Part shown: piece by piece, positions 10,495 through 64,000 of the stretch | How the letters are laid out: every line of letters starts with the position of its first letter | How positions within the stretch are numbered: position 1 is the stretch's first letter | IMG/VR virus record: IMGVR_UViG_2974597248_000001 | Location: 49,479-113,478 of that record | Source of the DNA: a virus | Lineage: Duplodnaviria > Heunggongvirae > Uroviricota > Caudoviricetes > Demerecviridae | DNA length: 64,000 nucleotides | Reading direction: 5' to 3' (one strand) | Position numbers and translations under genes: made by a program | The notes under the pieces: generated by a model | What the model was told of the DNA's origin: nothing | What the model saw: the letters and a program-made list of their open reading frames with translations, nothing else | Databases searched by the model: none

Positions 10495-10991
10495 AACAAT
10501 ACTCCTGTGTTGGTTAATCGAAATCTTTTCTTTAGGACTATTCAGAAAGAATAGAACAACTATTACTACTATTTACGTAAACATCAATTATCATCAAGCA
10601 ATATGAATAAGTTATCATATCTCAGTGCTGTGCTCTCTTCGCTCATATACAGAATAGAACCTAGGTCATTGGCCGCTAAGCCGATTCTATTTGTCCTCAC
10701 TATCCTATTGGTAGGTGACTACTGTACGTGCCGCCATTCGCTGCTCTTTTCGTTCGCACCCCCATATAAAGCTCTGCCTATATAACGAGCTAAATATGCA
10801 CGGTTTGGATTTACCTTTCCGAATTCAGGGTACACAGATCACTTAATTGAAGATTAACTAATGCAATATAAACACTAGTAATAGTTAAAACAACCCTTAA
10901 TGGGGCAGCCTAACTGTTCCGTATCGCGGATTGTAAACAAGAAAAATTAGCAAAATCAATTTTTACTAATGTCTCTCAATTCAATATAAAT

Positions 10992-16175: not shown

Positions 16176-17067
16176 TGATTATTTCCTCGATAAATTTTAT
16201 AGCTACTTCTGGCTCAATATTGAAGAATTCCGTAGCACCATCAAAATCTTTGTATTGGCAATTCTGTTCTTTAAAGTAGTTATGGGCTAATTTTTCGATT
16301 TGAACTGCATCACTATATTCTCCAATTTCAAATACTTTAATTACTTCCAGATCAGTAAGGTGACTACTAGATTTAATATGTAAAAGTCTGCGCTCTGGAT
16401 TGTTAGACCTACCTATTTTAACACCATGTGAAGGGCTGTGCATAATATATACCTTAGTATTTTCTAAATCCCTATACTTACAGTAAGGACAACCATTTCC
16501 TCCTAACACGGATCCTGGAGTAGCTTCCCACTGATGCCCTGCACCACAGAGAAAGGTGGTCTTAATATTCGCATTACTATATTCACCTAATATTCTAATA
16601 TTCCTAGCAGTAAGACGATCGTTTATAGTATTAATACTAAGTTTTTGTTTATTAACAGCACAAGAGGGGCAGCCACTACCTCTATTAATTATACTATTAA
16701 GTGTAGTAGTCCACTCATGACCACAAATACACCTAAATTTAGTATTTATATCGGCACTATTTTTATAGCCTTCCAACAATGTAATACCCCTACTCTGTAA
16801 TACAGTATTAATTTTATCAATATCTAGTTTACGGCTATTAATAGAACAAGTAGGACAATTGGTCTTTCCATTCCTAATAGCATCAAATTTAGATGTCCAT
16901 TGATGACCATATTCGCACTGATACGTATGCCTATACCTAGAATTCTGATATGGCTTATCCACCATAGTAAAACCACGTTCGGCTAGGCATTTATCTACTT
17001 CTTCTTGGGTTAATTTTTTCGGCATTTCCCTTCTCCACAGAATTTTTACACCTATTATACTAAACAT
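16162..17067 (-). CDS. T5orf172-domain protein with three Zn-ribbon repeats
   Basis: Three CxxGHxW...GCPxC modules followed by a T5orf172-like C-terminus (VYIMHSP..GVKIGRSNNPERRL). Driven by the TTGACA-17-TATAAT promoter at 17054-17082. Confidence 0.7.
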   Translation of the reverse strand: MFSIIGVKILWRREMPKKLTQEEVDKCLAERGFTMVDKPYQNSRYRHTYQCEYGHQWTSKFDAIRNGKTNCPTCSINSRKLDIDKINTVLQSRGITLLEGYKNSADINTKFRCICGHEWTTTLNSIINRGSGCPSCAVNKQKLSINTINDRLTARNIRILGEYSNANIKTTFLCGAGHQWEATPGSVLGGNGCPYCKYRDLENTKVYIMHSPSHGVKIGRSNNPERRLLHIKSSSHLTDLEVIKVFEIGEYSDAVQIEKLAHNYFKEQNCQYKDFDGATEFFNIEPEVAIKFIEEIINDRK

Positions 17068-17082
17068 TATCCATTATGTCAA
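17054..17082 (-). promoter_or_regulatory. consensus sigma70 promoter (TTGACA-17-TATAAT) for the T5orf172 gene and nrdD
   Basis: The reverse complement reads TTGACATAATGGATAATGTTTAGTATAAT. Confidence 0.6.
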
Positions 17083-48789: not shown

Positions 48790-48818
48790 TTGACTTTTAG
48801 CCCTAGTTATTATATAAT
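48790..48818 (+). promoter_or_regulatory. sigma70 promoter
   Basis: TTGACT-17-TATAAT. Confidence 0.6.
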
Positions 48819-49804: not shown

Positions 49805-50091
49805 GTAAATTAGTATATCTATTGAAAGGTTCCACTTGCAATCCTTGCAAACTTTTCGAGCCAGTATTTGATAAAGTAGTCAGTGACTATAATTTGGAAA
49901 TCCATAAAGAGACTGATAATACAGAATTAATGCAGAAATTTGGTGTGCGCCAAGTTCCTGTAGTAGTTCTGGCGGATCGTTTACCTAATGGTCGAGTAGA
50001 AGCTAATCATATTCTGATTGGACGTCAGCTTCGTAAAGAAACTATGCACGAAGCTATTAAAAATTTCCTGGATGATAATCCAGAGGACTAA
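49801..50091 (+). CDS. thioredoxin/glutaredoxin-like protein (CNPC)
   Basis: CxxC motif (GSTCNPCKLF) and length about 96 aa. Confidence 0.6.
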   Translation: MSKLVYLLKGSTCNPCKLFEPVFDKVVSDYNLEIHKETDNTELMQKFGVRQVPVVVLADRLPNGRVEANHILIGRQLRKETMHEAIKNFLDDNPED

Positions 50092-50098
50092 TAAACAA

Positions 50099-50130
50099 AG
50101 CCTGATCTTAGCTGATCAGGCTTTTATTTT
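50099..50130 (+). terminator. rho-independent terminator
   Basis: AGCCTGATC...GATCAGGCT followed by TTTATTTT. Confidence 0.65.
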
Positions 50131-50132
50131 AC

Positions 50133-50161
50133 TTGCTTTTTGCTAAAAATTTTGATATAAT
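50133..50161 (+). promoter_or_regulatory. T5-early-type sigma70 promoter
   Basis: TTGCTT-17-TATAAT. Confidence 0.6.
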
Positions 50162-50188
50162 ACTTATATAAATTGATTGGAGGATTAA

Positions 50189-50434
50189 ATGTTAGCGGAA
50201 CAAGCAAAACGTTTAGCCAGGATAAATAGAGCCACCCTTCTTAAGAGCAGAAAGAAACCATATAAGTATGTTAAAAAGAGAATAGTTTCTTCTGTGGAGA
50301 TTGGAGGCTCTTTTGTACAGTTTAATCGTGATGAAATTAGTTATGAAGCTATAAAAGCCCTCTATAAAGAGGGTTATACTCTCCAACTATCCAATGATTA
50401 TGGCACAACTATTTTAACTGTTATTTGGGAATAA
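50189..50434 (+). CDS. hypothetical protein
   Basis: 81 aa; promoter at 50133-50161. Confidence 0.5.
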   Translation: MLAEQAKRLARINRATLLKSRKKPYKYVKKRIVSSVEIGGSFVQFNRDEISYEAIKALYKEGYTLQLSNDYGTTILTVIWE

Positions 50435-50436
50435 TT

Positions 50437-51288
50437 ATGAAAAAAGAATTTAATGTACATAAAACTCTAGTAGTGCCGGATGACGCCAACTTGTTTTTCG
50501 TCGGTGATATTCATGGGTGCAATGATTTGCTAGAAGATGCGTTGAAATTAGCTGGGTATAATAGCAAAAAAGATTGCGTAGTATGTGTTGGTGACTTAAT
50601 TGATCGAGGCACACAAAACTTACAAGTTTTAGCCAAATTCCTATATAATCCACGCTTTATCAGTGTCCGTGGTAATCATGACCAATTTATGATTGCAGGA
50701 GATTGGGCTAATTGGATGTATAATGGTGGTATGTGGGCCATGAATGAACTAGATGCAGACACCATTAAAAATATTGCCGAAGATATGGCTGAAAAAATGC
50801 CTTTACTTATGACTGTGCTACATAGGGGGAAAAAATACGGTGTAGTACATGCCGCAGTACCAATTGAATACAAAGAATGCGGTAATGAAGTAAAAACCCC
50901 TAACTGGGACAATCTAGTAATGCAACTAGAACACTCTACTGGTCATGATTTATGGGATCTTATGGATGGATGTTTATGGGATCGTGACATTATTCAGGAT
51001 GTATTCTCCCATATGTCTAATAATACAGATCATCCATATTTTCAAAGATATGCGGGAATGCCGGAAGAATTAATAAACCTAGTGCCAGAAGTTATGGGGG
51101 TGGATTTTGTATTCCATGGTCATACCGGAGTCCCTTACCCTTTTGCGTATAAAAATCGTGTTTATCTTGATACTGGCGGTGTTTTCAACGGGCAGTTGAC
51201 GGTTGCGCAAGTTAACGATGAAACTGGCAAAATTACCACATTTACCACAGATAAAAATAATAGCTGCGGTGTACAGAGGGTTCTTTAA
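50437..51288 (+). CDS. Ser/Thr protein phosphatase (metallophosphatase, lambda-PPase-like)
   Basis: GDIHGC...GDLIDRG...GNHD motifs. Confidence 0.75.
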   Translation: MKKEFNVHKTLVVPDDANLFFVGDIHGCNDLLEDALKLAGYNSKKDCVVCVGDLIDRGTQNLQVLAKFLYNPRFISVRGNHDQFMIAGDWANWMYNGGMWAMNELDADTIKNIAEDMAEKMPLLMTVLHRGKKYGVVHAAVPIEYKECGNEVKTPNWDNLVMQLEHSTGHDLWDLMDGCLWDRDIIQDVFSHMSNNTDHPYFQRYAGMPEELINLVPEVMGVDFVFHGHTGVPYPFAYKNRVYLDTGGVFNGQLTVAQVNDETGKITTFTTDKNNSCGVQRVL

Positions 51289-51518
51289 TGAAAAAGTTAA
51301 TTCTATTATCTGTGCTATTATTGGCTGGTTGCAATCCTTTTGACAAGGGTATTAGAATCCAGTATGAGGATATAAAGTATCTCTGTGAACAATCTGGTGG
51401 AGTTATTAACACAGAAACTTATCAAATAGGGGTGTCCAAAGGTATAGTACTAGACACTGTAGTTATCACACAAACATGTGATAGAACTCCTAAAAACAAG
51501 GAGGGGCATAATGAATGA
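51288..51518 (+). CDS. lipoprotein
   Basis: Signal peptide plus lipobox MKKLILLSVLLLAGC. Confidence 0.55.
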   Translation: MKKLILLSVLLLAGCNPFDKGIRIQYEDIKYLCEQSGGVINTETYQIGVSKGIVLDTVVITQTCDRTPKNKEGHNE

Positions 51519-51798
51519 TCGCGTAAAAAGTACAAGAAGAATTACGAGCGATGCGTATTGATGCCCTTCGTTGGAGGACATTAGTTAATGCTTTTGTAAA
51601 AGGGGGATACCGGAATAATATATTCTGGAATAGCAGTCAATTTTTGTTTTAATTCTCCTGCTGAAATAGAGATAGAAACAAGGCTTACTACCTACCTTAA
51701 TGAGGTAGACCTTAAGGAAGGAGAGACTCCCGAAGAGTTTAAAACCAAAGTGTTAACCTCTTGGGTTGATAGTTTAATACAGAATAAGGGAAAGAGTA

Positions 51799-52389
51799 AT
51801 GAAAGTTAAATTCTGGTCAGACTTGCATCTAGATCACCCTGGGGTGTTACGTTTCCGTCCGTGGTTTAAGAACATGAAAGAGCACGATGAGTATATTCTA
51901 GACACTTTGTCCAAGCATATTGGTAAACGAACAAAACTTATTTTGCTAGGGGATATTGCAGTAGGTAGTGAAGGTCTGGCCAAATTAAAGTCGGTTATCC
52001 ACAATGTTCCTAATCAACCCATTATGGGTAATCATGATGCGGAACGTCAAGGACTGAGCATTAGGGACTTAGCAGAAGTCTATGATGATATTCAGGCTTT
52101 AGGTAAACAGACTGGGGGTGGCAAAAAGTTTTGGTTATCTCACTGCCCTTTGCACCCTAATGAACTTCGTGGCAAACTAAATATTCATGGACATGTACAT
52201 ACTACTTCTTTACGTGATCCACGTTATATCAATGTCTCATTTGAAATGAGTAAAATTCCAATTCCACTAGAGGATATTGTATCTGGTAAGTTTACTAGCT
52301 ACGATAGAGTAGTTAATTGTACTACCGGCGAAGTATTACAAATAGGGGAAGATGTAGCTGCTGTATTACGTGGTGATATAAATGTCTAA
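51799..52389 (+). CDS. calcineurin-like metallophosphoesterase
   Basis: DLHLDHP...GDIAVG...GNHD...GHVH motifs. Confidence 0.6.
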   Translation: MKVKFWSDLHLDHPGVLRFRPWFKNMKEHDEYILDTLSKHIGKRTKLILLGDIAVGSEGLAKLKSVIHNVPNQPIMGNHDAERQGLSIRDLAEVYDDIQALGKQTGGGKKFWLSHCPLHPNELRGKLNIHGHVHTTSLRDPRYINVSFEMSKIPIPLEDIVSGKFTSYDRVVNCTTGEVLQIGEDVAAVLRGDINV

Positions 52390-52497
52390 GTATATAGCTG
52401 AGGCTATTATTAAACGAGTCATACAAGCGATAGCAATACTTATAATCATTTGTATTGCTATTGGCACAGGATTAGGCATTTTAATTAAAAGTTTTAT

Positions 52498-52526
52498 TTG
52501 CTAAAATGCTTAAGTTTCTGTATAAT
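52498..52526 (+). promoter_or_regulatory. T5-early-type sigma70 promoter
   Basis: TTGCTA-17-TATAAT. Confidence 0.6.
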
Positions 52527-52556
52527 TACTTTATAAATTGATGAGAAGGAATCAAA

Positions 52557-52988
52557 ATGAACAAAGTTGATAAAGCTCTAGTTTTCGCAGCAGCAGATAA
52601 GTTTGAACAAGTTAAGGCAACTTTCCGAACCTTGTTCCAGTCTTACGTTCAGGATAAGTCTAATCCTATCTCTGAACGTTTGATGGTCTGGGAATGTCAT
52701 GCTTGCAATGCCCTATTAATTGCGGATTATCGTAGCGATATAGATAAAGATCTATGCGAAATTCTTATCCCTGAGGAGGCAGAACGTTATCAGTTAATCT
52801 CTTTCCAAGATTTGGCGGAGCATATCATTCCTGATGATCTCTGGGATAAATACTATGGTGATCCTGAAGATGAAGGAATGACTCCAGAAGCCTGTATTGA
52901 GCTGATCTGCAAAGATCATCCTGAAATTGCAGAGAAATTTGAAAAAGTTTTTGCTTCTGAGTTCTCCGGCGTTGTTAACGATTGGTAA
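52557..52988 (+). CDS. hypothetical acidic protein
   Basis: 143 aa; promoter at 52498-52526. Confidence 0.55.
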   Translation: MNKVDKALVFAAADKFEQVKATFRTLFQSYVQDKSNPISERLMVWECHACNALLIADYRSDIDKDLCEILIPEEAERYQLISFQDLAEHIIPDDLWDKYYGDPEDEGMTPEACIELICKDHPEIAEKFEKVFASEFSGVVNDW

Positions 52989-53005
52989 GTAATTAAAAAA
53001 TTCAG

Positions 53006-53034
53006 TTGCTTTAAGCCTTAAAATTCTGTATAAT
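53006..53034 (+). promoter_or_regulatory. T5-early-type sigma70 promoter
   Basis: TTGCTT-17-TATAAT. Confidence 0.6.
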
Positions 53035-53064
53035 AAGTTTATAAATTAATGAGAGGAAATTCTA

Positions 53065-53343
53065 ATGGAAAACATGACTAAAGACTTCGACGCCTCTAAC
53101 CTTACCAAGACTGAAATGGCCAATGTATTAGCAATTCTCCTCGACATGCAAGGATTTGAGGGGCAACTGATGAAAATGTCTATTCCGGCGATGAAGAAGA
53201 TGTATGATTCTCTTAACAAGAACGCTATGGCCTTTAACTTAGCAAAACAAGAGGCACGCTTTGCTAAGGAGCATCAAGCAGTGGCAGAACGCCGAGCAGC
53301 TAGCTTTGAGCGTGAAGTCAAGCAATTAAAGAAAAAATGCTAA
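53065..53343 (+). CDS. hypothetical protein
   Basis: 92 aa; promoter at 53006-53034. Confidence 0.5.
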   Translation: MENMTKDFDASNLTKTEMANVLAILLDMQGFEGQLMKMSIPAMKKMYDSLNKNAMAFNLAKQEARFAKEHQAVAERRAASFEREVKQLKKKC

Positions 53344-53873
53344 CACAAGAAAGATTAAAAGAGTTATTTGAATACCGCCCGGAAACGGGCGAGTTTATAA
53401 GGAAAGTCAGTAGAGGACGAGGTAAAGCAGGTAGTATTGCTGGTAGTCCTGATAAGGATGGTTATATATTTATTGGGATAAATAGAAAAAGATATGCAGC
53501 CCATAGGTTAGCCTTTTTGTACATGGAGGGGTATATTCCAAATCTAGTACACCACTTAAATAATATAAGAAAAGATAATAGATGGTGTAATTTAAAAGAT
53601 TGTACGTCCCAAGAAAATAATCGTAGCAAAATCGCTCAATCTAATTCGGGGTACTTAGGAGTTACCTGGAAAAAAGATCGACAACAATGGAGAGTCCAGG
53701 CCAGAAGCGCCGAAAGCATTACAGTACACGGAGGCTACTTTAGGTATCTAGATTTAGAGTTGGCAGTTCAAAGAGCTAACGAGCTACGGTTAGAATTACA
53801 TGGGCCTACTGCTGTTATAGAAACTTTTGATCATACAAAACCATTACCTACTTTAGAGGAATTAAATAAATGA
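53337..53873 (+). CDS. HNH homing endonuclease (HNH plus AP2-like)
   Basis: VHHLNNIRKDNRWCNL...QENN HNH motif and an SGYLGVTW AP2-like block. Confidence 0.75.
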   Translation: MLTQERLKELFEYRPETGEFIRKVSRGRGKAGSIAGSPDKDGYIFIGINRKRYAAHRLAFLYMEGYIPNLVHHLNNIRKDNRWCNLKDCTSQENNRSKIAQSNSGYLGVTWKKDRQQWRVQARSAESITVHGGYFRYLDLELAVQRANELRLELHGPTAVIETFDHTKPLPTLEELNK

Positions 53874-54151
53874 TTACAGAAATTCTCATTGGATTGTTAG
53901 TGCTTATGACACTAGCAGCGATTGGTGGGATTATTGGTATTGTAAGCATGCGAAAAAACATGGAGAGTATGCTTACTACTAATAGTGGACTTCACTGCCG
54001 CTTAATAGAACAAGAACAAGATATTGAACTAGCACAAAGACGCTCAGATATTCTAAAAGAAAAACTAAACAATATTGAAGCAATAGCTGGGAATACAAAA
54101 TTACCTAATAAAGTAATGCGTGCACAGATAATTACGGAGATTAAAAAATGA
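53870..54151 (+). CDS. membrane / coiled-coil protein
   Basis: 93 aa. Confidence 0.45.
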   Translation: MITEILIGLLVLMTLAAIGGIIGIVSMRKNMESMLTTNSGLHCRLIEQEQDIELAQRRSDILKEKLNNIEAIAGNTKLPNKVMRAQIITEIKK

Positions 54152-54393
54152 TGATGTTTATTCTAGCGTTTTATCTAATTGTGGTTGGTGTACTGGTTAC
54201 TAAGTACCACACATGGACGCCAAAGAATGTTGTTAAGGTAGCTTTATTTGTTATTCCAGTTCCACTTATTATACTTTCTATGTTACTGGTGATGTTAGTT
54301 GGTAAAGTAACAAAAACCGATATTAAACGTATTGCGGATGAATTGCAACAGTCTTGTGATATGGTAGAGGATATTCTTAAAGATGAAGCTTAA
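54148..54393 (+). CDS. membrane protein
   Basis: 81 aa, two TM segments. Confidence 0.45.
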   Translation: MMMFILAFYLIVVGVLVTKYHTWTPKNVVKVALFVIPVPLIILSMLLVMLVGKVTKTDIKRIADELQQSCDMVEDILKDEA

Positions 54394-54709
54394 TTTTAAT
54401 GAATTAAATACCTTACATGAGATATTACAGTTTGTGAATAACAATATTAGTATTCCGGACGATACATTAGAAGTTCTCATGTTAATCGAGAAAAAGGTAG
54501 GAATTGAGATTGAGGACTCTTGGAAACCACTTTCTGTATTAACACCACTTAATATGAAAGTGATAGTTAAAAATATCAATACTGGTGAAGAGTGTGAAAT
54601 GATTCGTAAAGAACTAGCTGATAGCTATTCACCAAAGTCTGTAGTAATGTACCATGATGATACTGCTAAGACTCTACAGACAGCTAATTACGTATGGCGT
54701 CTCCCATGA
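54383..54709 (+). CDS. hypothetical protein
   Basis: 108 aa. Confidence 0.45.
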   Translation: MKLNFNELNTLHEILQFVNNNISIPDDTLEVLMLIEKKVGIEIEDSWKPLSVLTPLNMKVIVKNINTGEECEMIRKELADSYSPKSVVMYHDDTAKTLQTANYVWRLP

Positions 54710-54808
54710 TTGATTTAGTACCAATTACTGCGGGGCTAATAGCACTATTAGTGCTTGCAGTTTTTATTATTGTGGAGCAGGCCAAAGTAATAAGGAGACT
54801 TAAAAACA

Positions 54809-55009
54809 ATGATAAAACGTCTTGTTTATCAGGCACCAAAGATTGTAACTGAGTATTTTGTATTACTGCCTCAGATTGTATTTCTAACAGCGTTATTTAA
54901 TATACTTTTTCGACATCTAGGAATAACAGAAAATATCTTCTACACTTCTGAACTACTTCCTTTTATGTACGAAGGCATCATCGTGGCAATTAACGGAGTT
55001 CGTAAATGA
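54809..55009 (+). CDS. hypothetical protein
   Basis: 66 aa. Confidence 0.35.
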   Translation: MIKRLVYQAPKIVTEYFVLLPQIVFLTALFNILFRHLGITENIFYTSELLPFMYEGIIVAINGVRK

Positions 55010-55467
55010 CAGCACTACAACAACTACAGAATTACTGGTTTGATAACCAATTTAACGATCTCTTTATCCAGTTATTTGTCGAAACGAACGGACGCTTCAA
55101 CTACCGATTCTTTAATAAGTTTCACGAGACAAAATTCTCGCATACAGAAATTAATGCAGCGATCCAAGACCTAACTGGTTCTAAAGTAGTTCAGTATCGT
55201 GAAGTAGATTTTACACCAGATTGTTTTGGGTTTGAATTGTTTAAGAAAGCATATAAATTTGGTAAGTTTGAAGATGCTCGTCAATGGGTTTATGATTTCT
55301 GGTATAATACCGATATTGTTCCTAGTCGTGTACTGATTCTTAACTGGATTGCTAAACAACATCCACCTAAAGCTCAATCGTCCTTCTTACCAACTGACAC
55401 AGGAAACCTTTACCATGACAGAAAAGAAAAATCCATTGCTGGAGCAGATGAAGGAATGGGAGAGTAA
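55006..55467 (+). CDS. hypothetical protein
   Basis: 153 aa. Confidence 0.5.
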   Translation: MTALQQLQNYWFDNQFNDLFIQLFVETNGRFNYRFFNKFHETKFSHTEINAAIQDLTGSKVVQYREVDFTPDCFGFELFKKAYKFGKFEDARQWVYDFWYNTDIVPSRVLILNWIAKQHPPKAQSSFLPTDTGNLYHDRKEKSIAGADEGMGE

Positions 55468-55786
55468 TATTGAATCTGGTCTAGTAGACGGAAAAGATAT
55501 TGTTAACTCCATGCTAGAAGTAACAATAGATAATGTTAACCCTATTTTGGCTGGGGAAGCTTCTGATCTTATAGGACTTTCTAGTACTTTCGATTCTTTG
55601 GCTAAATTAGCTTTAGATGATGAAGAGATAACCAAAGAAGATCTCACCTCAGCTATGAATATGGCTATTAACGCTTACATTGACAAACGTACCAATGAAC
55701 TCGACAAACAAATCAAAAAGCGTGATACAACGTTAAGCCTTATGAAAACGGCCACTATTTTAAGAAGTGGTAAACAACTTCATTAA
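55415..55786 (+). CDS. hypothetical protein
   Basis: An RBS (AGGAAAC) precedes the start. Overlaps the previous ORF. A terminator follows at 55793-55825. Confidence 0.45.
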   Translation: MTEKKNPLLEQMKEWESNIESGLVDGKDIVNSMLEVTIDNVNPILAGEASDLIGLSSTFDSLAKLALDDEEITKEDLTSAMNMAINAYIDKRTNELDKQIKKRDTTLSLMKTATILRSGKQLH

Positions 55787-55792
55787 TTCTAG

Positions 55793-55825
55793 GGGCCAGG
55801 ACTTAATTGTTCTGGCCTTTTGTGT
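55793..55825 (+). terminator. rho-independent terminator
   Basis: GGCCAG...CTGGCC followed by TTTTGTG. Confidence 0.55.
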
Positions 55826-55840
55826 TTCAAGGAACTTCAA

Positions 55841-56044
55841 ATGCAAGTATATGTCCTTACTAGAGATATAAATGAGTATAATCAGGATGGGGAATATTTT
55901 GTAAAGGTATTCGCTGAAAAGCCAAGTAAACAACAACTATTAGATGCCGGAGTACCAGAAGACCAGGCTAAGTGTATACTACAAGATAAAGAATTTACTG
56001 GTGATGCTTACGAATGTTTCTACCTTAGCTGTGAGAATATCTAA
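55841..56044 (+). CDS. hypothetical protein
   Basis: 67 aa. Confidence 0.4.
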   Translation: MQVYVLTRDINEYNQDGEYFVKVFAEKPSKQQLLDAGVPEDQAKCILQDKEFTGDAYECFYLSCENI

Positions 56045-56045
56045 T

Positions 56046-56486
56046 ATGAGAGAAAAAGTAAATGAATTATTAATCGAGGAAGCTAACAACTTCCCAATAA
56101 ATAGGTTTATCAAATCTGATGAGTCTATTAATAGAACTAAAATTAAGCAGCTACATCCCGACTTTCAGCAAGAAGCACTAAACCTTATATTTATCAAGAA
56201 AGCTGTTGCAGTTCATGAAGCTTTCTTCGGGTATGAGCGTGTAAATTATAAAACAATGCAACAGCAAGTAGAGATCTACTGCCCGGATCATGAAGGGTAT
56301 TATTGGCAAACTGCTAGATCTCATTTAGAAGGGCATGGTTGTCGACTGTGTGCACACAAGGTTGTGCAGCGTGTCACAGATTATGGAACTTATACCGTAC
56401 CAGCATGTTATCATAAATTTGTAATTGACGATAATCATATAGTTTGGTATAATAAGTTTTCAAAGTTAAGAATGGAGATAAAATAA
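56046..56486 (+). CDS. truncated T5orf172-family paralog (Zn-ribbon N-terminal module only)
   Basis: The N-terminal 100 aa are about 60% identical to 58009..58737 (QLHPDFQQEALNLIFI identical; CxxHxGYxxQTARSHLxGHGCxxCA). It lacks the T5orf172 domain. Confidence 0.55.
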   Translation: MREKVNELLIEEANNFPINRFIKSDESINRTKIKQLHPDFQQEALNLIFIKKAVAVHEAFFGYERVNYKTMQQQVEIYCPDHEGYYWQTARSHLEGHGCRLCAHKVVQRVTDYGTYTVPACYHKFVIDDNHIVWYNKFSKLRMEIK

Positions 56487-56671
56487 TGGAAACATTACTT
56501 CTTGTATTACTAGGAGGCTCACTCCTAATAATCCTGGGGCTGATACTGATTTGCAGTCGCCTCAATACTAAGAATCTAGAGTTAACCTGTGAGAATGAAA
56601 TTCTCAATAATGAACTCTTTCAATATAACATCGCAGCTCATAAACTGTTAGACAAACTGGAGAATAAATAA
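56486..56671 (+). CDS. small membrane protein
   Basis: 61 aa. Confidence 0.4.
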   Translation: METLLLVLLGGSLLIILGLILICSRLNTKNLELTCENEILNNELFQYNIAAHKLLDKLENK

Positions 56672-57291
56672 TGACTTTTAATGCACAACAACCTATTCAA
56701 GTAGTACCAGACCATGAACTGAACACATGGGATTATAGCTTTAAAGATTTAACTGCTACTGTACAATTCAAATCTATGAAGCTAACATTTGCACACAATG
56801 ACCTTAGAGCATGTAAAGATCTTGAGGATAAGCTCGAAGATGCTCGTAAGATTTTTGGCAAGGCTCGCATCCCGGCTGATAATCTAATTAACGCATTAAT
56901 CGATGCAGGGTACAAACTTGTGAAGACTGAGGTGAACCGCCCTAGTACTCCAGTGACTATTAGAGATCCGTGGCAATCAGGAACAATCTCAATGCTGAAT
57001 AACTCCGATAAAAGATTAATGTCGGATATGCACAATGTTCCTTGTGGGGGTGTGGTAAGTAGTACGCAGTCATATAAGTTTGCGGAAGATTACGGCCCTT
57101 CTGTACAGTTGAAACATACTCAAGAAGCTTTTGAATCCGATATGCGAAGCGTAGCACCTGCGGATGCTGGAGTTTCTGGGAGTTCTGTTTGTACTATTCA
57201 TTTTAATAATCCTAGTAAACATGGAAGTCTAGAAGATGCTATTATGGAGGCGTTGGGGGCTGCTCTTAATGAAGATAAGAGAGGTAATTAA
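56671..57291 (+). CDS. hypothetical protein
   Basis: 206 aa. Confidence 0.55.
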   Translation: MTFNAQQPIQVVPDHELNTWDYSFKDLTATVQFKSMKLTFAHNDLRACKDLEDKLEDARKIFGKARIPADNLINALIDAGYKLVKTEVNRPSTPVTIRDPWQSGTISMLNNSDKRLMSDMHNVPCGGVVSSTQSYKFAEDYGPSVQLKHTQEAFESDMRSVAPADAGVSGSSVCTIHFNNPSKHGSLEDAIMEALGAALNEDKRGN

Positions 57292-58016
57292 TGAGTATTA
57301 AAAAGAATTTAGCAGAGATTATTAAGTTAGCTAGAGCTTGTAATGGGAAATGTGTTTCTCAGCTTAATGAGTTAGAGGCACATGCAGTAGCATTTTGTGC
57401 AGAGTTTTATCCTGCATATATTAATGCTAGTGGACAACCTAAATATAATAAAGATGCAGAAGAAGTTACATTAGCACCTTCATATATTAGCTTGCGTCGT
57501 TTAATTCAAACCGTTGATCCTACTATTAAAGGATTCTCAGCAGATTCATTCCATGTATTTGCAGATAAAGAACTCCCGTATTTTAAAGAAGGAAATGCAA
57601 AGTCATGTCTAGAATGTTATCCTAATATTCTGATGATTCCTCAAAAGCAATGTAAATATGATCATCTTCCTAGACTTACAAAGAAAGTAGAACCACCTTA
57701 TTCTTCTCTATCTGAGTTAAAGCTAGGAATCGTATCTACACTTGCGCAGGTTCATCTAAGTATAGTTGACGACTCAACAACATCTAACCCTATTCTAGAT
57801 GCTGCTCACTTTGAAATTTTACGTGATCCTGAACAAGCTAGAAAAGTTGCTAAGTCTGTTAAGTTTGATATATCAACAATTCTTGACACTAAACAAGAAA
57901 CTAGACCTAGAGGAAGTGTAGATTATTCTGCGCTAAATTCCGAGTCATCTTACTTAGCAACATTCCTTTTCATGGCGTCAAAAGGAGTTATTCTAAAGGT
58001 TAATAAAGATGGATGA
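57291..58016 (+). CDS. hypothetical protein
   Basis: 241 aa. Confidence 0.55.
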   Translation: MSIKKNLAEIIKLARACNGKCVSQLNELEAHAVAFCAEFYPAYINASGQPKYNKDAEEVTLAPSYISLRRLIQTVDPTIKGFSADSFHVFADKELPYFKEGNAKSCLECYPNILMIPQKQCKYDHLPRLTKKVEPPYSSLSELKLGIVSTLAQVHLSIVDDSTTSNPILDAAHFEILRDPEQARKVAKSVKFDISTILDTKQETRPRGSVDYSALNSESSYLATFLFMASKGVILKVNKDG

Positions 58017-58737
58017 TTTACGTGCTGAAATTAATAAAAAGCTACGCGAGGAAGCCAGGAGGTTTCCTCTTAAAAACTTTTTGAAGTCAAATGGCTCTAC
58101 TAATATAACGAAGATTAGGCAACTTCACCCTGACTTCCAACAAGAGGCCTTAAACCTTATCTTTATTAGGAAAGCTTTAAAAGTCCAGAAAGAAGAATAT
58201 GGGTATGAAAAAGTTAATTATAAGACAGCCAATCAGTTAGTAGAGATATGGTGCTATAAGCATAAAGGATACTTTATGCAAACTGCTAGATCCCACCTAG
58301 ATGGGCACGGCTGTTTACAGTGTGCTAGAGAAAGCAATCTTAATACACCTATCGAGAAACCGGAAGTAGAAGAAGATGTTCAGTTTCCCACATATCTCTA
58401 CATCTTCTCTAATAAAGATCAGTCTAGGAAGAAATTAAAGACAAAGATTGGGGTTTCTAGAGAGCCACATCAAAGGTTTAAGAATCTAGAGTATGATAAA
58501 TTGCGTGTGCCGGGTTTTGAAGATATGGAAGTATTTGGTATCTACCAGTACAAGAAAGGATCGAAAGAACTTGCTTATAAAATAGAACACCAAGCACATA
58601 AATTTTTCGAGAATAAATTTGCTAACCATTATAAATTCGATGGAGCAAAAGAGATATTCAACATTAAAGCTATAGAGGCAGAAGAATATCTATTAAGTCA
58701 AGGTTGCGTAAAAATTTACCCAACTCCAAACTCATGA
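58009..58737 (+). CDS. T5orf172-domain protein with one Zn ribbon (full-length paralog of 56046..56486)
   Basis: TYLYIFS...KIGVSREPHQRFKNL T5orf172-like block plus a GHGCLQCA Zn ribbon. Confidence 0.65.
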   Translation: MDDLRAEINKKLREEARRFPLKNFLKSNGSTNITKIRQLHPDFQQEALNLIFIRKALKVQKEEYGYEKVNYKTANQLVEIWCYKHKGYFMQTARSHLDGHGCLQCARESNLNTPIEKPEVEEDVQFPTYLYIFSNKDQSRKKLKTKIGVSREPHQRFKNLEYDKLRVPGFEDMEVFGIYQYKKGSKELAYKIEHQAHKFFENKFANHYKFDGAKEIFNIKAIEAEEYLLSQGCVKIYPTPNS

Positions 58738-58764
58738 CGAAAATTTAAAAATAACGAAATCTGC

Positions 58765-58794
58765 TTGACATTCGTGAGAATAATGTGTTATAAT
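58765..58794 (+). promoter_or_regulatory. consensus sigma70 promoter with no downstream ORF
   Basis: TTGACA-18-TATAAT; the best -35/-10 match in the window. Confidence 0.55.
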
Positions 58795-59000
58795 AATCTC
58801 ATAGATTAAAAACATCAACTTGTTTTTACCTCTAGGCCGTAGATTTACATCATTCCTCGTAGGAAAACACTTGATGACGGTTCTGCTCGCAGGTTCTCGT
58901 CAATTGTTCTTCCACACCGAGACTTAGGAGGATGTATCAAATCGCACGCGCCTAGAGGGGCTAACTCTCATGAAATGGGGGTATATTTATTTTTAAATAA
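58795..59000 (+). ncRNA. candidate non-coding transcript from an ORF-less consensus promoter
   Basis: TTGACA-18-TATAAT at 58765-58794. The longest downstream ORF is 17 codons. Confidence 0.3.
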
Positions 59001-59147
59001 CTAAAAAATATTTAAAGGCAATATCTGTGTTCAAGATGATACACCTGTTGCCGCTCATCTGCTAGGATGGCACAACACTTTCTTCTAGACTCCTAAGTTT
59101 CTAGGAATAGTTGAGCACAAACTCTAGCGTTTATACTAAACTTTAAA

Positions 59148-59882
59148 TCGGATTTGCACATGTTCTAGGGCAGTTTCTCTTAACGCTACATATCCTAGGC
59201 CGGTTTTCCTATACAGGGCGGTTATAGGGAGGGCGGTTATTTCTAGACAACATTTTTTGAAAACACATTTTCAGAAATTACTGTCGGATTTGCACATTGT
59301 GTTTCTAGAAATTTATGGTCGGATTTGCACAATTGCCTAAGTTTTTAGGAACATATAATCTCCTGAAAATGGCAGCATTATTTCGGGCCGAAGGCCCATG
59401 ATTGCCTGAGTTTTTAGAGCCACAGAAATTTTCACTTGTCAAGCTATTTTGCCCCATTTTGCTAATAAAATTTTACTTTATCTCCACTAATCTCAAATTA
59501 ACCCAAATCTTCTCAACTCTTCCCCAAAATCCCCGCAAATCAGGTGGCCCGCACCAAACATGCGCCCCTCTAGCTTCTCCCCTAATTTTCTCTCGCTCTC
59601 TCATCTTCTCCACAAACCCGCACAATCACACACCCTCCAATCGAAGTCACAAAAATCTTGTCGGATTCGCACAAATAAACTCATGTCGGATTTGCACATA
59701 TTCTAGCTAATTCCACAGGATTGATGCGCAGCATCGGATTGCTGGAGTTTCTAGAAAAATTCATTGTCGGATTTGCACACTATAAAAATTTTTCGGGTCG
59801 GATTTGCACACTACCAAAAATTGTCGGATTCGCACATACACGCCCGCACGTAACACCCGTGGAGCAATGTCGGATTTGCACA
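59148..59882 (+). repeat. array of nine dispersed direct copies of a 14-mer iteron, GTCGGATT(T/C)GCACA
   Basis: Copies start at 59148, 59274, 59308, 59660, 59685, 59766, 59797, 59823 and 59869, all in the same orientation. Confidence 0.85.
59480..59660 (+). repeat. strand-asymmetric, nearly G-free C/A/T-rich low-complexity tract
   Basis: About 180 nt of the form CCCCAAAATCCCCGCAAATC...CACAAACCCGCACAATCACACACCCTCCAATCG on the plus strand. Confidence 0.6.
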
Positions 59883-59884
59883 AA

Positions 59885-59906
59885 AGCGCAGGGCAATTGC
59901 CCTGCG
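59885..59906. repeat. 22-bp perfect palindrome GCGCAGGGCAATTGCCCTGCGC
   Basis: Read directly from the sequence. Confidence 0.9.
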
Positions 59907-59910
59907 CTAA

Positions 59911-60120
59911 ATACGAATGATAATAAGAATCATTCTCATTTAAAAAGCGGAATGAGAATGATAATAATTCTCATTTAAAAAGCGGAATGATAATCATTAT
60001 CATTTAAAAAGCGGGATGAGAATCATTTAAAAAGTGGAACGATTCTCATTTAAAAAGCGGAATAATTCTCATTTAAAAAGCGGAATGCGAATGATAATGA
60101 TTCGCATTTAAGAATGGAAG
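59911..60120. repeat. degenerate tandem array (7 units of 23-35 bp) of a palindromic A+T-rich unit TCATTTAAAAAGCGGAATGAgAATgATaAT
   Basis: Unit starts at 59936, 59971, 60000, 60023, 60046, 60069 and 60104. Confidence 0.85.
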
Positions 60121-60141
60121 TGAGAAACACTGTTATTTAAG

Positions 60142-60161
60142 TTATCCCCAGACTTATCAAC
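60142..60161 (+). promoter_or_regulatory. two DnaA-box-like 9-mers (TTATCCCCA, TTATCAACA; each 8/9) outside the left inverted repeat
   Basis: The CAGACTTATC context recurs at 60149 and 60210. Confidence 0.4.
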
Positions 60162-60209
60162 AGCACGATTTGACTTGACAAAATTCTAGCCATTTTGAGG
60201 CGTTATTAA

Positions 60210-60249
60210 CAGACTTATCCACAGCTTATCCTACTGTATAAATATACAG
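60210..60249. repeat. left 40-bp perfect inverted repeat (contains the DnaA box TTATCCACA at 60215-60223)
   Basis: CAGACTTATCCACAGCTTATCCTACTGTATAAATATACAG is the exact reverse complement of 62425-62464. Confidence 0.9.
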
Positions 60250-60507
60250 TATTCCTACGCAGTGAATAATTCTAATATACCGCTAAAACGCCCTCAAACG
60301 CATTCTAACGCGTTTAATTTTGTTGGGGATACTAAAACAAGGGCAAAATTGGAGGAGGCTTGAAAATTAGTTAGCGAGCTAACGATCACATAAGGCGACA
60401 CGTAACACCCTAACCATTAGCAGGCTAACCATCGCGGGCGCGGTCAAATGAGAATCACTCTCATTTGAGAATTGGGGGCACTCCCGGATAGTTGCGCCCC
60501 GTGATTA

Positions 60508-60702
60508 TTAGTCAGGTAGTTGATGCGTGATCTTTTCCTCCTCCCCGTAGGAATCCACCAAATACTGATAATAACCATCGTGATCATAGATCACTTTATC
60601 ATATTCCCCACGCTCAACCGCTTGTCGGTTTTCTGGCGTATCAGGCACGTAAAAAACATCAACCATTGTACTGATTTTGGTTACAACAATTTTATTGCTC
60701 AT
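60508..60702 (-). CDS. hypothetical protein (inside the IR-bounded segment)
   Basis: 64 aa. Confidence 0.35.
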   Translation of the reverse strand: MSNKIVVTKISTMVDVFYVPDTPENRQAVERGEYDKVIYDHDGYYQYLVDSYGEEEKITHQLPD

Positions 60703-60975
60703 AATAACGCCCTAGTAAATATATTTTTGCCAATAGTGGCGAACGTTATCGCCACCAGCGGAATCATTAGCGGCCTTACTATTACCGACGAAAGTATATA
60801 ATCTCATTAGTATTATTTTCCTTGCATTAATTTATATATAACGAACATTCCGCAAAACTGCCCTAATATAGTGCAGACAACAAGGGATAACACAATATTG
60901 CCGATCATGTTATAAGTAACCATACCAATAATAAGGGATAGCGCATACCCTAGCAAAGCAATATAAACAGCCATA

Positions 60976-61326
60976 TTATTTACCTATTTTTCGAAACGCT
61001 GTTTCAATACTATCAGCCGTGGATTGAATATATGCGCCTTTCATTATCAGGCGCTCGGTGCATACTTTGCGGAAAATATTAATAAAATCATCTTCACTTT
61101 CTGCAATTAATGCCTCACCCATTACCTGAACGTCGCAAGATGCAAAGGTTAAAAATTGAAACGCTAGTTCACGGGCAACGACCGCATTGATTTTATAATG
61201 CGCCTTGCCCTCATAAATATTAATAACGCCCTTATAAGCTGGCGAAAGCTGGTTTAAATAGTTTGCTAACAATGCCGGGCGGCAGTTAGCAACAAAACGA
61301 TTGCCCTCGTAAATGATCATTTGCAT
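60976..61326 (-). CDS. hypothetical protein (inside the IR-bounded segment)
   Basis: 116 aa. Confidence 0.45.
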   Translation of the reverse strand: MQMIIYEGNRFVANCRPALLANYLNQLSPAYKGVINIYEGKAHYKINAVVARELAFQFLTFASCDVQVMGEALIAESEDDFINIFRKVCTERLIMKGAYIQSTADSIETAFRKIGK

Positions 61327-61444
61327 AACCTCCCGATCAGATAGCCTGATAAAAGCATAAAGATCCCCAACGAAATGGGATCATTTTTAAATAAGGTGGC
61401 AATAAAACCGCCAGCTATTGCAAGGAGAATAACAATAACGCTTT

Positions 61445-61657
61445 TCATAGTACCCCACGAAACGCAGCGTAAAAGGTGGCAAAGTGCCTAACCGTTTCAG
61501 TGATCACGTTGCCGCGCTTATCGAATTTCTTTTCAGTAACACGAAAGGCATTTTTATTACGTGCTACATATTCGATTTTACAATCTGGACGCTCGAACGT
61601 GTTAGCATCCACCAGCTTAAAGCCTTTCGAACGTGCAAGAGAAACGTTGCGGATCAT
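61445..61657 (-). CDS. hypothetical protein (inside the IR-bounded segment)
   Basis: 70 aa. Confidence 0.4.
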   Translation of the reverse strand: MIRNVSLARSKGFKLVDANTFERPDCKIEYVARNKNAFRVTEKKFDKRGNVITETVRHFATFYAAFRGVL

Positions 61658-61660
61658 TTT

Positions 61661-61843
61661 TTATTCTCCTTTACCAGTCATGCAGCCCAGCAGATAAGAA
61701 AATACAGCAATGCCAGCGCCAATAGTAACCATTGGTTTAGTATTTACTAAACCGCAATAGGAATCCTGAATACCATAAGCGGTGGCGAAAAGAGTCAAAA
61801 TAGCGCCCAAGATACCCGCTAAAAAAGCTCGAAAAATAATCAT
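61661..61843 (-). CDS. small membrane protein (inside the IR-bounded segment)
   Basis: 60 aa, hydrophobic. Confidence 0.35.
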   Translation of the reverse strand: MIIFRAFLAGILGAILTLFATAYGIQDSYCGLVNTKPMVTIGAGIAVFSYLLGCMTGKGE

Positions 61844-61892
61844 TTGTGATACTCCCCTAGTTAGTGGGGCGATACTTTCGCCCCGTTATTGA

Positions 61893-62201
61893 TTACATTA
61901 AAATAATTTTGGCCGCTTGTTTTTTGGTACAGTGTTCCGTCTTCAGGGTATCCAGCAAAAAGCCCGCCGTTTGCTGATCGATTTGATCATTATCATAAAG
62001 CGCTTGGATGGTGGTGTAAGTTTTAGCAATGCCGTATTCTTGGACCATTTCCTGAATAATCCAGCGATTTGATACCCAGCCTTTTCCAGTGAAAAGAGCG
62101 TCAGAAGAAGAAAAAGCAACCATTTTAAGCCTCCAAAATTTTGGGAAAATTTTCAATCCACCGTTCTGGTGTAAAAGCATTATAACAAAAAAGGCCACCA
62201 T
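61893..62201 (-). CDS. hypothetical protein (inside the IR-bounded segment)
   Basis: 102 aa. Confidence 0.4.
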   Translation of the reverse strand: MVAFFVIMLLHQNGGLKIFPKFWRLKMVAFSSSDALFTGKGWVSNRWIIQEMVQEYGIAKTYTTIQALYDNDQIDQQTAGFLLDTLKTEHCTKKQAAKIILM

Positions 62202-62424
62202 AAAAGGCGACCTTTACAAAACTTTACAATAGGCTAGTTATTACTCGTTTTCGGTGTTAACGGTAAAAGTAGAAATATCGATACCTTTTACCATTTCCAG
62301 CATTGCCGCCGCCTGGCCGCCGTGTCACGGCTTTACTTTAATATTACCCCGCAGCGTTTAGCTCGTTAGAAAGCGTTTTAGGCCGCATAAAATTGATTGC
62401 AGTCGTTAACACTACCTTTTTACC

Positions 62425-62464
62425 CTGTATATTTATACAGTAGGATAAGCTGTGGATAAGTCTG
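62425..62464. repeat. right 40-bp perfect inverted repeat (DnaA box TGTGGATAA at 62451-62459)
   Basis: Exact reverse complement of 60210-60249. Confidence 0.9.
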
Positions 62465-62523
62465 TGCAAAAGTCCCCATATCGCCGCCTATCGTGTCAAA
62501 TTATTTTACAAAATGTATAAGTC

Positions 62524-62532
62524 TGTGGATAA
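62524..62532 (-). promoter_or_regulatory. additional consensus DnaA box (TGTGGATAA) outside the right inverted repeat
   Basis: 9/9 match to TTATCCACA on the minus strand, in a second ATAAGTCTGTG context. Confidence 0.5.
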
Positions 62533-62723
62533 CTTAAATGATAGTGATTCTCACTAATTAATTTATGTAGTTATTATATCGTAAAATATAGTTAGTTGCC
62601 TAATAGGTTTTTAGAGTGATTATGAGTCAGCTAATTAAACCTGAAAAACTCATTAGCTAGTCTGCTAATCATTTTGATATAATATAATAGAGATTAAAGT
62701 AATAACATAAGGAAACTATAACA

Positions 62724-63245
62724 ATGGGTAAATATAAAGAAATTAATTATAATGATATAAAAGATCACGTATATTATGATGAATCGTCGCCATCATTTCT
62801 ACGATGGAAAGTAACGCGGGATAATATTTCAGCAGGTGATATTGCCGGTTGTATTAATTCCAGTGGTTATTATATCGTAACTATTAATAACGTTAGTTAC
62901 CGAGTACATCGTATCATATGGGTATTATTTCATAAAGAAATAGATAGCAATCTAACAATCGATCATATTGATCGTAACCGCGCTAATAATAACATTAAAA
63001 ACTTACGCCTTGTTACTCATTCGCAGAATTGTAGTAACAAGGGTGATAGTTTGCGTGCTAATGGTTTACCTAGAAATATTTCATATCATTCTAATAATCG
63101 TGTTGATAGTAACGGGCGTAAATATATGACGGCTATGTTTCGAGTGCCTAATAGTAACAAGCGTGTTAGTAAGTCTGGTTATGATTTACAAGAGTTATTA
63201 TTATGGCTTGAAACTAAAAAAGCTGAATTTGGAATTGTCAATTAA
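62724..63245 (+). CDS. HNH homing endonuclease
   Basis: IDHIDRNRANNNIKNLRLVTHSQN HNH motif plus an AP2-like region; an A+T-rich promoter-like sequence lies upstream. Confidence 0.65.
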   Translation: MGKYKEINYNDIKDHVYYDESSPSFLRWKVTRDNISAGDIAGCINSSGYYIVTINNVSYRVHRIIWVLFHKEIDSNLTIDHIDRNRANNNIKNLRLVTHSQNCSNKGDSLRANGLPRNISYHSNNRVDSNGRKYMTAMFRVPNSNKRVSKSGYDLQELLLWLETKKAEFGIVN

Positions 63246-63758
63246 TTAATTTAATAAATTAAGTCATTTGATCTTGATTTTTAAAAGTCAAGACCTTTTC
63301 TAACTTTATTTCAATTTTGCTTTTGTTAAATATTTGTTAAGTCCAATTTAAGGCATCTAGAACGCATTCTAAGCGCCTTAAAAACTAACCTAAGCAAGTG
63401 CATCGCTTATACGCCTTTATCGCCATCAGGAGGATTCTAGATTTTGTCAATACCCCCAAAGCAAATAAAAATGAAAAATTTACTTGCCTATCTGCTATGT
63501 TTTGTGGTATTCGCGCGCCCGTTTCTTTTAATTTTAATGCGCCGCGCCCAGGTCGCCGCATGGTGTCCGGTGGCGTTTGTCTTTACATTTCTTTACAAAA
63601 ATAAGGTTGCGCCTTTTTCGTTGTTTGTTATTATTTATCTCGTAGGGCGGCAATGACGAACTACACGGCGGGAAGTTTACCGCCGCGCTCTTTAAAAATT
63701 GGGTATATCTTAAAGCCTATCGGCGGTAAACTTATCTATTATATAAGGAATCGACGAT

Positions 63759-63962
63759 ATGAAACAAACTTTATTGATCACTGGTAAACCTAGCAAGGCA
63801 CTGGATAGCAAAACAAAAAATTTATTGACAGTAGCGCAAAGATCGGTAAAATATCGATTTGAGCAGTACAAGAAAGGCCGCCAGCAAGGACTAGAAATGA
63901 TCTGGCGAAATATTATGATTGACCTGAAGGAAAATCATAAAAAACTGCAAAAAATAGTTTGA
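63759..63962 (+). CDS. hypothetical protein
   Basis: 67 aa. Confidence 0.35.
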   Translation: MKQTLLITGKPSKALDSKTKNLLTVAQRSVKYRFEQYKKGRQQGLEMIWRNIMIDLKENHKKLQKIV

Positions 63963-64000
63963 CAACCTAGCCGATAGGCTTTAAGATGTACCCAGTTCGA

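Follow-up and report, generated by a model that had tools for sequence, protein, structure and literature searches.

A promoter near the terminal repeat of a T5-like phage, described in an earlier note on this DNA as driving no ORF, probably opens a transcription unit of its own, whose product would be a structured non-coding RNA of ~165-210 nt (we put the chance at roughly 60%). In the DNA analyzed here, a stretch of 64,000 nucleotides referred to as the window, this RNA would extend from 58801 to ~58996. Judging from sequence and predicted structure, a transcribed RNA whose structure is under selection is very likely. That the RNA is a discrete product acting in trans is a more tentative reading, which falls a little short of an even bet. 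Our best guess is that it is a discrete early small RNA. It looks like a member of a new and widely conserved phage RNA family, for which we found no prior annotation.

A consensus promoter outside the terminal repeat

The window was 100% identical to Salmonella phage SP01 (KY114934), a T5-like phage of the genus Tequintavirus. Window positions were obtained by subtracting 49478 from positions in the SP01 record, whose orientation is the reverse of the T5 convention. Position 1 of that record maps to 59417, the first base of the terminal repeat and the physical genome end, and the sequence from 59417 to the end of the window is identical to the record from position 1 onward. The repeat boundary, GAGTTTTTA/GAGCCACAG at 59416/59417, is homologous to the repeat end of T5 at 10139 in AY587007. 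The length of the left terminal repeat differs among deposited T5 genomes (9749 bp in AY692264, 10139 bp in AY587007, and 10219 bp in AY543070 and NC_005859), and the shortest of these values stops exactly at the major nick.

The -35 hexamer TTGACA (58765-58770, + strand) and the extended -10 element TGt-TATAAT (58786-58794, + strand; TG at 58786-58787, TATAAT at 58789-58794) together form TTGACA-18-TGnTATAAT at 58765-58794. This is a 12/12 match to the sigma-70 consensus and the sole one within 50000-64000; by an estimate from base composition, ~0.1 such matches are expected per 64 kb on both strands. The consensus promoter reported at 58765 in the earlier note is thus present, with its 18-bp spacer and with TGn in addition. 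Its rank as the best in the window is shared with a promoter at 17082 on the minus strand, which likewise scores 12/12 and has the optimal spacer length of 17 bp. That promoter, a perfect TTGACA-17-TATAAT at 17082-17048 (- strand), is followed 28 nt on by GGAGAAGG-ATG and a 287-aa ORF, which is contained in the listed 301-aa ORF at 16162-17067 (- strand). The near-consensus promoters at 48790, 56425, and 17082 (- strand) each have an ORF preceded by a Shine-Dalgarno (SD) sequence ~30 nt downstream. By contrast, no SD-preceded ORF of at least 30 aa was found in the 400 nt downstream of the promoter at 58765, in agreement with the observation that it drives no ORF.

The predicted transcription start is the A of CATAG at 58801 (+ strand), placed from its position 7 nt past the -10 hexamer. 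The discriminator is AATCTC here and AACTCT in the T5 copy, as against the ATATT that the Klimuk paper describes in the discriminator of all T5 early promoters identified to date. At the sequence level, the candidate small-RNA gene has a promoter of its own, as an independent gene should.

The promoter lies ~650 bp outside the terminal repeat and is directed into the untranslated, repeat-rich region known to T5 workers as the "injection stop signal" or "Repeat Region 3" (Davison preprint). Its upstream neighbor is the last ORF of the early region (58009-58737), which encodes a T5orf172/GIY-YIG-like protein. This gene is missing at the corresponding position in SPC35 and T5. Its end abuts the -35 hexamer, and the SP01-type spacer (58771-58788) is 18 bp, compared with 17 bp in the relatives whose spacing was checked. 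The gene looks like a homing-endonuclease-type insertion that left the promoter core preserved. A separate hairpin lies between the upstream stop codon and the promoter in T5 and in the more distant phages Shiner and Noelle, which speaks for an independent unit.

The earlier note had suggested that transcription from this promoter might activate DNA transfer, which its orientation excludes. In the T5 orientation, the promoter is to the right of the left repeat and reads leftward, toward DNA that is already in the cell, so a polymerase starting there cannot pull in the remaining DNA. Internalization driven by transcription, of the T7 type, was rejected, as the promoter is outside the DNA of the first-step transfer and reads back into it.

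Homologous regions share no conserved small ORF

Homologous regions were gathered from IMG/VR, metagenomes, and GenBank phages. These relatives sort into eight sequence classes: A (SP01 and SPC35), B (T5 itself), and C through H. One of the eight distal rods of the predicted RNA (see below) was found in 392 phage records; in a sample of 60 records, 22 belonged to class B, 16 to A, 5 each to C, D, and E, 4 to G, and 3 to F. The classes straddle the boundary between Tequintavirus and Epseptimavirus, and chimeras occur (class H, L039), which argues that the module is horizontally exchanged. Among the phage hits, H120, H153, and H161 bear the names of Listeria phages (LM 4-14-1 and LM 4-11-1) and of Campylobacter phage C13; their sequences are T5-like at 94-100% identity, probably as a result of database contamination or mislabelling.

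The promoter spacer diverges freely in sequence among the eight classes and four distant genera, with the hexamers and TGn kept. Most relatives have TTGACA as the -35 hexamer; class E has TTGCAT, class F and part of class G have TTGACG, and Noelle has TTGATA. TATAAT, TATCAT, TAGAAT, TAAAAT, and TACAAT were seen as -10 hexamers, and TGn was found in 8/8 classes and 4/4 distant relatives.

The longest downstream ORF was confirmed to have 17 codons: it starts with ATG and is nested in a 35-codon ORF starting with TTG at 58820-58927. In SPC35, a 1-nt deletion shifts the frame of this ORF and alters its C-terminus and length, and the ORF is missing from the other classes. Classes D through G contain an unrelated ORF of 11-43 codons beginning MIIT..., and an 8-codon ORF, MKWGYIYF, reads ATG-TAA in class F. 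A conserved small ORF with a ribosome-binding site, which the earlier note had named as a finding that would speak against a non-coding product, was searched for, and none was found; presence, frame, and length vary by class.

A small protein encoded downstream of the promoter could be sought in the short ORFs that are present, namely MTVLLAGSRQLFFHTET, the MIIT... ORF of classes D through G, which has GGGGCG ahead of it, and MKWGYIYF. However, neither the sequence nor the length (8 to 44 aa) nor the presence of these ORFs is conserved across classes, and their SD spacing is poor (0-2 nt). The class A frame is altered by the SPC35 deletion, and the F-type sequences read ATG-TAA. We consider a small protein scarcely credible, and this hypothesis was rejected because no ORF is conserved across classes.

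In KookSpook (an Escherichia phage, L045), Baret, vB_Sen_H9, and FGS029, overlapping "hypothetical proteins" of 30-40 aa are annotated on both strands over the RNA gene and the injection-stop region. These are very likely false gene calls, and spurious small "hypothetical proteins" from annotation pipelines would be explained by an RNA gene occupying the region. In the T5 records AY587007, AY543070, AY692264, and NC_005859, no promoter or gene is annotated between the repeat end and ORF018. Davison's comparative study of the region nowhere mentions a promoter or transcript. A literature search, whose scope left most pre-2000 work (maps of Bujard's group) and Wang et al. 2005 outside, yielded no T5 small RNA or promoter at this place. 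Total RNA-seq of T5 at 10 min after infection has been reported (PMC12483538), and methods for engineering T5 are available.

Known RNA families were also compared with the locus. With Rfam 15, the only matches in the window above the gathering score were tRNAs. The covariance-model search proposed in the earlier note gave no Rfam match to 58795-59000 at E ≤ 10, and the other sequence classes gave nothing credible at E ≤ 1. No similarity to 5,426 E. coli genomes was found, which, at the sequence level at least, speaks against obvious mimicry of a host RNA.

The predicted RNA and its fold

The candidate non-coding RNA of ~196 nt (58801-58996, + strand) is supported by its fold and by a covariance model, R1. 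With a minimum free energy (MFE) of -64.2 kcal/mol (z = -5.56), the + strand of 58801-58996 was more stable than any of 200 dinucleotide shuffles; the opposite strand gave -51.5 kcal/mol (z = -3.3). R1 matched 58801-58998 (+ strand) with 58.2 bits and E = 1e-11.

Three stems and a tail make up the predicted RNA, all on the + strand. A 5' hairpin, H1 (AAAAACAU/UUGUUUUU, 58807-58828), is followed by P2, an imperfect rod of ~50 bp closed by CCUCUAGGC/GCCUAGAGG (58829-58957). Next is the hairpin H3, ACUCUCAU-GAA-AUGGGGGU (58964-58982), whose pyrimidine strand pairs with a G5 run (CUCUCAU/AUGGGGG). Directly after H3 comes a U/A-rich tail, AUAUUUAUUUUUAA (58983-58996), the presumed 3' end; the sequence after H3 reads AUAUUUAUUUUU.

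H3 was independently scored as terminator-like, and its motif is unique within the window. A generic phage terminator was therefore rejected as an explanation of H3, a near-match at ~22780 lying inside a coding region. A hairpin with a U-rich tail occurs in all classes and is strong in class E only, where a stem of -17 kcal/mol precedes the U-rich tail UUUCUUUAUA; in classes C, D, and G the terminator is weak. Given the weak H3 terminator in several classes, the RNA may be just the 5' part of a longer transcript.

Classes A and C through H have in common the 5' leader, H1, the basal ~20 bp of P2, an internal loop on the 3' side (CUUCC, CUCAC, or CUUAC; consensus YUYMC), and H3. Over its distal 60-100 nt, the P2 rod differs wholly among the eight classes, with no sequence relationship from one to another, and folds as a helix in every one. 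The + strand fold is more stable than that of the - strand in 8/8 classes, by 2.5-15 kcal/mol, and the T5 copy, predicted at complement(~10562..10764) of AY587007, has z = -6.70. According to R1, each genome of classes A and C through H has one full-length copy.

Substitutions that preserve pairing on the + strand

Substitutions within classes were tallied from sequence alignments and a reference MFE structure. The 343 unpaired positions carried 40 changes, and the 750 paired ones carried 28. Among the 28 paired-position changes, 13 keep the pair by wobble (A-U to G-U, or C-G to U-G), 6 constitute three compensated pairs, and 9 break the pair. The three fully compensated pairs, 61/127, 63/125, and 72/108, distinguish T5 from Shivani-type sequences. 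The wobble-keeping substitutions are compatible with pairing of the + strand only.

Across classes, compensatory (double) changes were found in 3/7 pairs of H1, with pairing variants such as AAAACAA/UUGUUUU, CAACUA/UAGUUG, and CAAUAA/UUAUUG. The basal helix of P2 is conserved, with both-sided changes in 5/19 pairs. R1 was built on H1, basal P2, and H3. When 22 distinct sequences were aligned to it, 90.7% of the cells were paired, versus 44-48% when the partners were slid, percentages that are inflated because the alignment was fitted to a structure derived from the same sequences. Nine pairs were altered on both sides, versus 0-3 with slid partners, and none of 500 shuffles reached the observed covariation score. 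Between-class variation consists mostly of wholesale replacement of the distal rod rather than stepwise covariation. R1 misses class B of T5 and the distant genera at significance, even with filters off. RNAalifold, applied to 11 sequences aligned simply with MAFFT, gave -3 kcal/mol and was set aside, the distal rods being unalignable by sequence; a hand-specified basal structure, the covariance model, and per-class analysis were used in its place.

The rod might alternatively be a palindrome or cruciform of the DNA, or a protein-binding site of the injection-stop region, with the promoter match incidental. The neighboring palindromes and repeats, which have presumed DNA-level roles, would fit such a reading. 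However, the + strand folds better in every class, the 13 wobble-keeping substitutions preserve pairs as G-U only and give A-C mismatches on the other strand, and H3 cannot form on the minus strand. Also, the hexamers and TGn are conserved family-wide despite the divergence of the spacer. The strand asymmetry and the G-U pattern make a pure DNA palindrome unlikely, and we regard this whole alternative as highly improbable.

Covariation, strand-specific pairing, and stability relative to shuffles, the marks of a structured RNA, were all found, with an alignment that is model-fitted and a distal rod that is replaced between classes. The covariation and the wobble-preserving substitutions support selection of the structure at the RNA level. 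The suggestion of a non-coding RNA in the earlier note is thus favored by an exceptional strand-specific fold, by covariation, and by the lack of a conserved ORF.

An equivalent module in other Demerecviridae lineages

The A1 gene was located by tblastn in four other lineages, and the interval from the last early gene to the terminal repeat was inspected. Right after the last early gene, all four have a TTGACA/TTGATA-17-TGnTAnAAT promoter, a structured region, a pyrimidine/G5 hairpin, and an A/U-rich tail. These were found in Klebsiella phage Shiner (Sugarlandvirus; L049 3664-3868, fold z of -3.7), Pectobacterium phage My1 (Mccorquodalevirinae; L050 884-1027, z of -5.07), Proteus phage 2 (Novosibvirus; L051 3461-3689, z of -4.55), and Vibrio phage Noelle (Ermolyevavirinae; L053 2766-2974, z of -2.4). 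An equivalent module thus occupies the equivalent position in Sugarlandvirus, Myunavirus, Novosibvirus, and Vibrio Thalassavirus phages, a homology that is based on synteny and architecture judged by eye, beyond the reach of the covariance model.

The promoter of Proteus phage 2 is likewise a 12/12 match with TGn. The G5 hairpin and the A/U-rich tail are retained out to My1, Proteus phage 2, and Noelle, and the + strand folds better than the - strand in 3/4 of the distant relatives. The module is followed by a GGGCGGTT doublet in My1 and Shiner and by TCGGATTTGCAC-type iterons in My1 and Noelle. In My1, the annotated repeat boundary lies ~600 bp past the module.

Repeats between the RNA and the genome end

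The sequence downstream of the promoter had been described as full of CTAG-containing short repeats, one of them occurring four times. The CTAG enrichment was confirmed (14.7/kb in 58738-59417 versus 4.7/kb in the whole window, or about three times), whereas the repeat count was not: GTTTCTAG occurs three times downstream (59097, 59301, and 59747) and once upstream, at 58453 inside the preceding gene. The iterons were found as reported, as nine direct copies of TCGGATTYGCACA at 59148-59882, all on the + strand, three outside and six inside the terminal repeat. They correspond to the published DRD repeats, annotated as direct repeat D in the T5 record AY587007.

Further repeats and motifs were observed around the boundary. 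A nearly invariant block of Markadamsvirinae (TTCAAGATGATACACCTGTTGCCGCTCATCTGCTAGG..., 59031-59110, + strand) is covered by most of 438 matching phage records, many without a match to the RNA part. In Markadamsvirinae, this block is more conserved than any flank, coding genes included, and it is not recognizable in My1, Shiner, or Noelle. The 13-mer CCTRAGTTTYTAG has only three copies in the window, at 59092, 59336, and 59405, all on the + strand, and the boundary 59416/59417 precedes the last base of the third copy; it is a candidate terminase recognition or cut motif. A GGGCGGTT doublet (CAGGGCGGTT...GGGAGGGCGGTTAT) at 59216-59238 sits between the RNA gene and the repeat boundary in SP01 and T5 and out to My1 (L050 ~1445-1470) and Shiner (L049 ~3996-4035), and is probably a protein-binding site. 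Inside the repeat, A/T-rich palindromic units at 59937-60083 contain six direct copies of CATTTAAAAAGYGG; they adjoin a GC-rich palindrome, GCGCAGGGCAATTGCCCTGCGC at 59886-59907, the counterpart of the major 7.9% nick site of T5. A/T-rich repeats extend over ~59915-60110, and DnaA or DnaA-like boxes are located at 60142, 60154, and 60215 (60142-60223).

With these elements downstream, transcription itself or a nascent structured transcript bearing the G5 run might act in cis on the iterons, the GGGCGGTT motifs, and the repeat boundary 620 bp downstream. It could activate an origin, as the earlier note had suggested, or prime one (compare ColE1 RNA II and T7 phi1.1A/B) or open the region of terminase cutting and repeat duplication (compare T7 phiOR). 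The promoter is directed at the iterons and the boundary, and iterons, DnaA boxes, and an A/T-rich region follow it in the layout of an iteron origin. The order of promoter, RNA, GGGCGGTT, iterons, and boundary is shared with My1 and, for the most part, with Shiner and Noelle. Classes C, D, and G have weak terminators, and an A/T-rich stretch comes after the G5 run. The boundary coincides with the end of the third of just three 13-mer copies in the window. Because T5 ejects its left end first, the repeat boundary is the probable starting point of packaging.

Other observations weigh against action in cis. A terminator-like hairpin stands between the promoter and the iterons and DnaA boxes, and in class E it is a strong canonical terminator ahead of the iterons. 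Merely driving transcription requires selection neither for a long rod nor for a sequence-conserved 3' hairpin. Just inside the terminal repeat, between the two iteron groups, the + transcript would be C-rich (81 C versus 17 G in 59431-59650; GC skew ~-0.5), which disfavors an R-loop. Moreover, T5 origins lie near the genome centre according to electron microscopy (EM) studies cited in Davison's preprint. On balance, we judge a cis role unlikely, though it is the leading alternative to a discrete small RNA.

Read-through past H3 would yield RNA antisense to the pre-early genes (minus-strand ORFs, 60508-62201) and might aid their shut-off after second-step transfer. In this reading, the structured 5' part would stabilize the transcript or confer resistance to termination, as HK022 put RNA does. 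The pre-early ORFs by the injection-stop region do lie on the opposite strand, the terminator is weak in some classes, and the structured RNA is immediately behind the promoter. However, these genes are separated from the RNA by ~1.5 kb of DNA rich in hairpins, among them the GC-rich palindrome at 59886-59907, the published account ascribes pre-early shut-off to protein A1, and no resemblance to put RNA was seen. An antisense read-through role is, in our estimation, very unlikely.

Possible roles of the RNA

As a discrete small RNA, the product would be transcribed by the host sigma-70 RNA polymerase without phage factors. In the T5 orientation, no other complete transcription unit would lie closer to the left terminal repeat on its right side, which would place the gene among the earliest to be transcribed once second-step DNA transfer starts. 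The G5 hairpin would end most transcripts. The product may then act as RNA, with the basal helix, the YUYMC internal loop, and the sequence-conserved H3 as a protein-binding platform. The distal rod would need helicity only, which would explain why it drifts or is swapped between phages.

Phage targets were also considered. The longest complementarity to other SP01 transcripts was 12-14 nt (E 0.07-1) in either orientation across the full genome, amounting to chance-level 10-14-mers, and no conserved single-stranded seed was found. An antisense regulator of a phage target was rejected, as only chance-level matches occur in the SP01 genome. Rad, the anti-retron factor of T5-like phages, was dismissed because it is a protein and irrelevant to an RNA locus.

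A more speculative proposal, which we consider quite doubtful, is that the RNA is a family-wide component of terminal-repeat function in Demerecviridae. Produced beside the genome end at which packaging probably starts, the RNA or its transcription would license terminase cutting, repeat duplication, or local initiation of replication, with the swappable rod conferring lineage specificity, as the loops of pRNA or the primer RNAs of plasmids do.

After 70 years of T5 as a model phage, there is still no explanation for the ~1.6 kb of untranslated DNA where its repeat ends on the inner side, a region that holds the injection stop signal, the major nick, and the genome end. To its inventory we add a candidate structured RNA gene with its own promoter, at the same position in phages from those of E. 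coli and Salmonella to those of Vibrio. If expressed, it would, as far as we know, give Demerecviridae the first non-coding RNA family other than tRNAs to be defined throughout the group.

Comparison with known systems

The lambda pR' "6S" transcript is 194 nt long and ends at tR'; it lies ahead of the late operon and owes its existence to Q antitermination. Like this transcript and oop RNA, the T5-like locus combines a strong promoter for the host polymerase, which no gene follows, with a predicted terminated RNA of ~200 nt, and read-through could likewise serve a second purpose. Unlike lambda 6S, the T5-like RNA has no following operon, contains a long conserved rod, and has no known antiterminator.

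The predicted RNA resembles phi29 pRNA in size and position, the latter being a phage RNA of ~170 nt made from a strong early promoter by the genome end. In both cases, secondary structure is conserved among relatives despite little sequence identity. The three-way junction, intermolecular loop pairing, and portal binding of pRNA were not seen here, nor was an Rfam match, and, unlike phi29, T5 is not known to need RNA for packaging.

The rod-shaped protein-binding RNAs 6S RNA and Y RNA/YrlA share with the predicted RNA a length of ~180 nt, an extended imperfect helix with a conserved base and a variable distal part, and a U-rich 3' end. However, the 6S, Y RNA, and YrlA models gave no match to 58795-59000 at E ≤ 10, and the RNA has extra 5' and 3' hairpins outside the rod. 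The predicted folds contain small internal loops and bulges only, with no large central bubble of the 6S kind.

ColE1 RNA II, the T7 primary-origin promoters, and T7 phiOR at the concatemer junction are similar in that a promoter is aimed at a cis region of replication or packaging. A G-run followed by an A/T-rich stretch and a terminal-repeat boundary downstream are further likenesses to this set. In contrast to these systems, a terminator-like hairpin lies ahead of the iterons here, and T7 has its own polymerase.

Within T5 itself, the closest described counterpart is "Repeat Region 3" (Heusterspreute 1987; Wang 2005; Davison preprint), which comprises the same non-coding stretch between pre-early and early genes, with the DRD iterons and DnaA boxes. 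The published region ends at 10409, and the promoter and the predicted RNA lie further right, at ~10560-10800.
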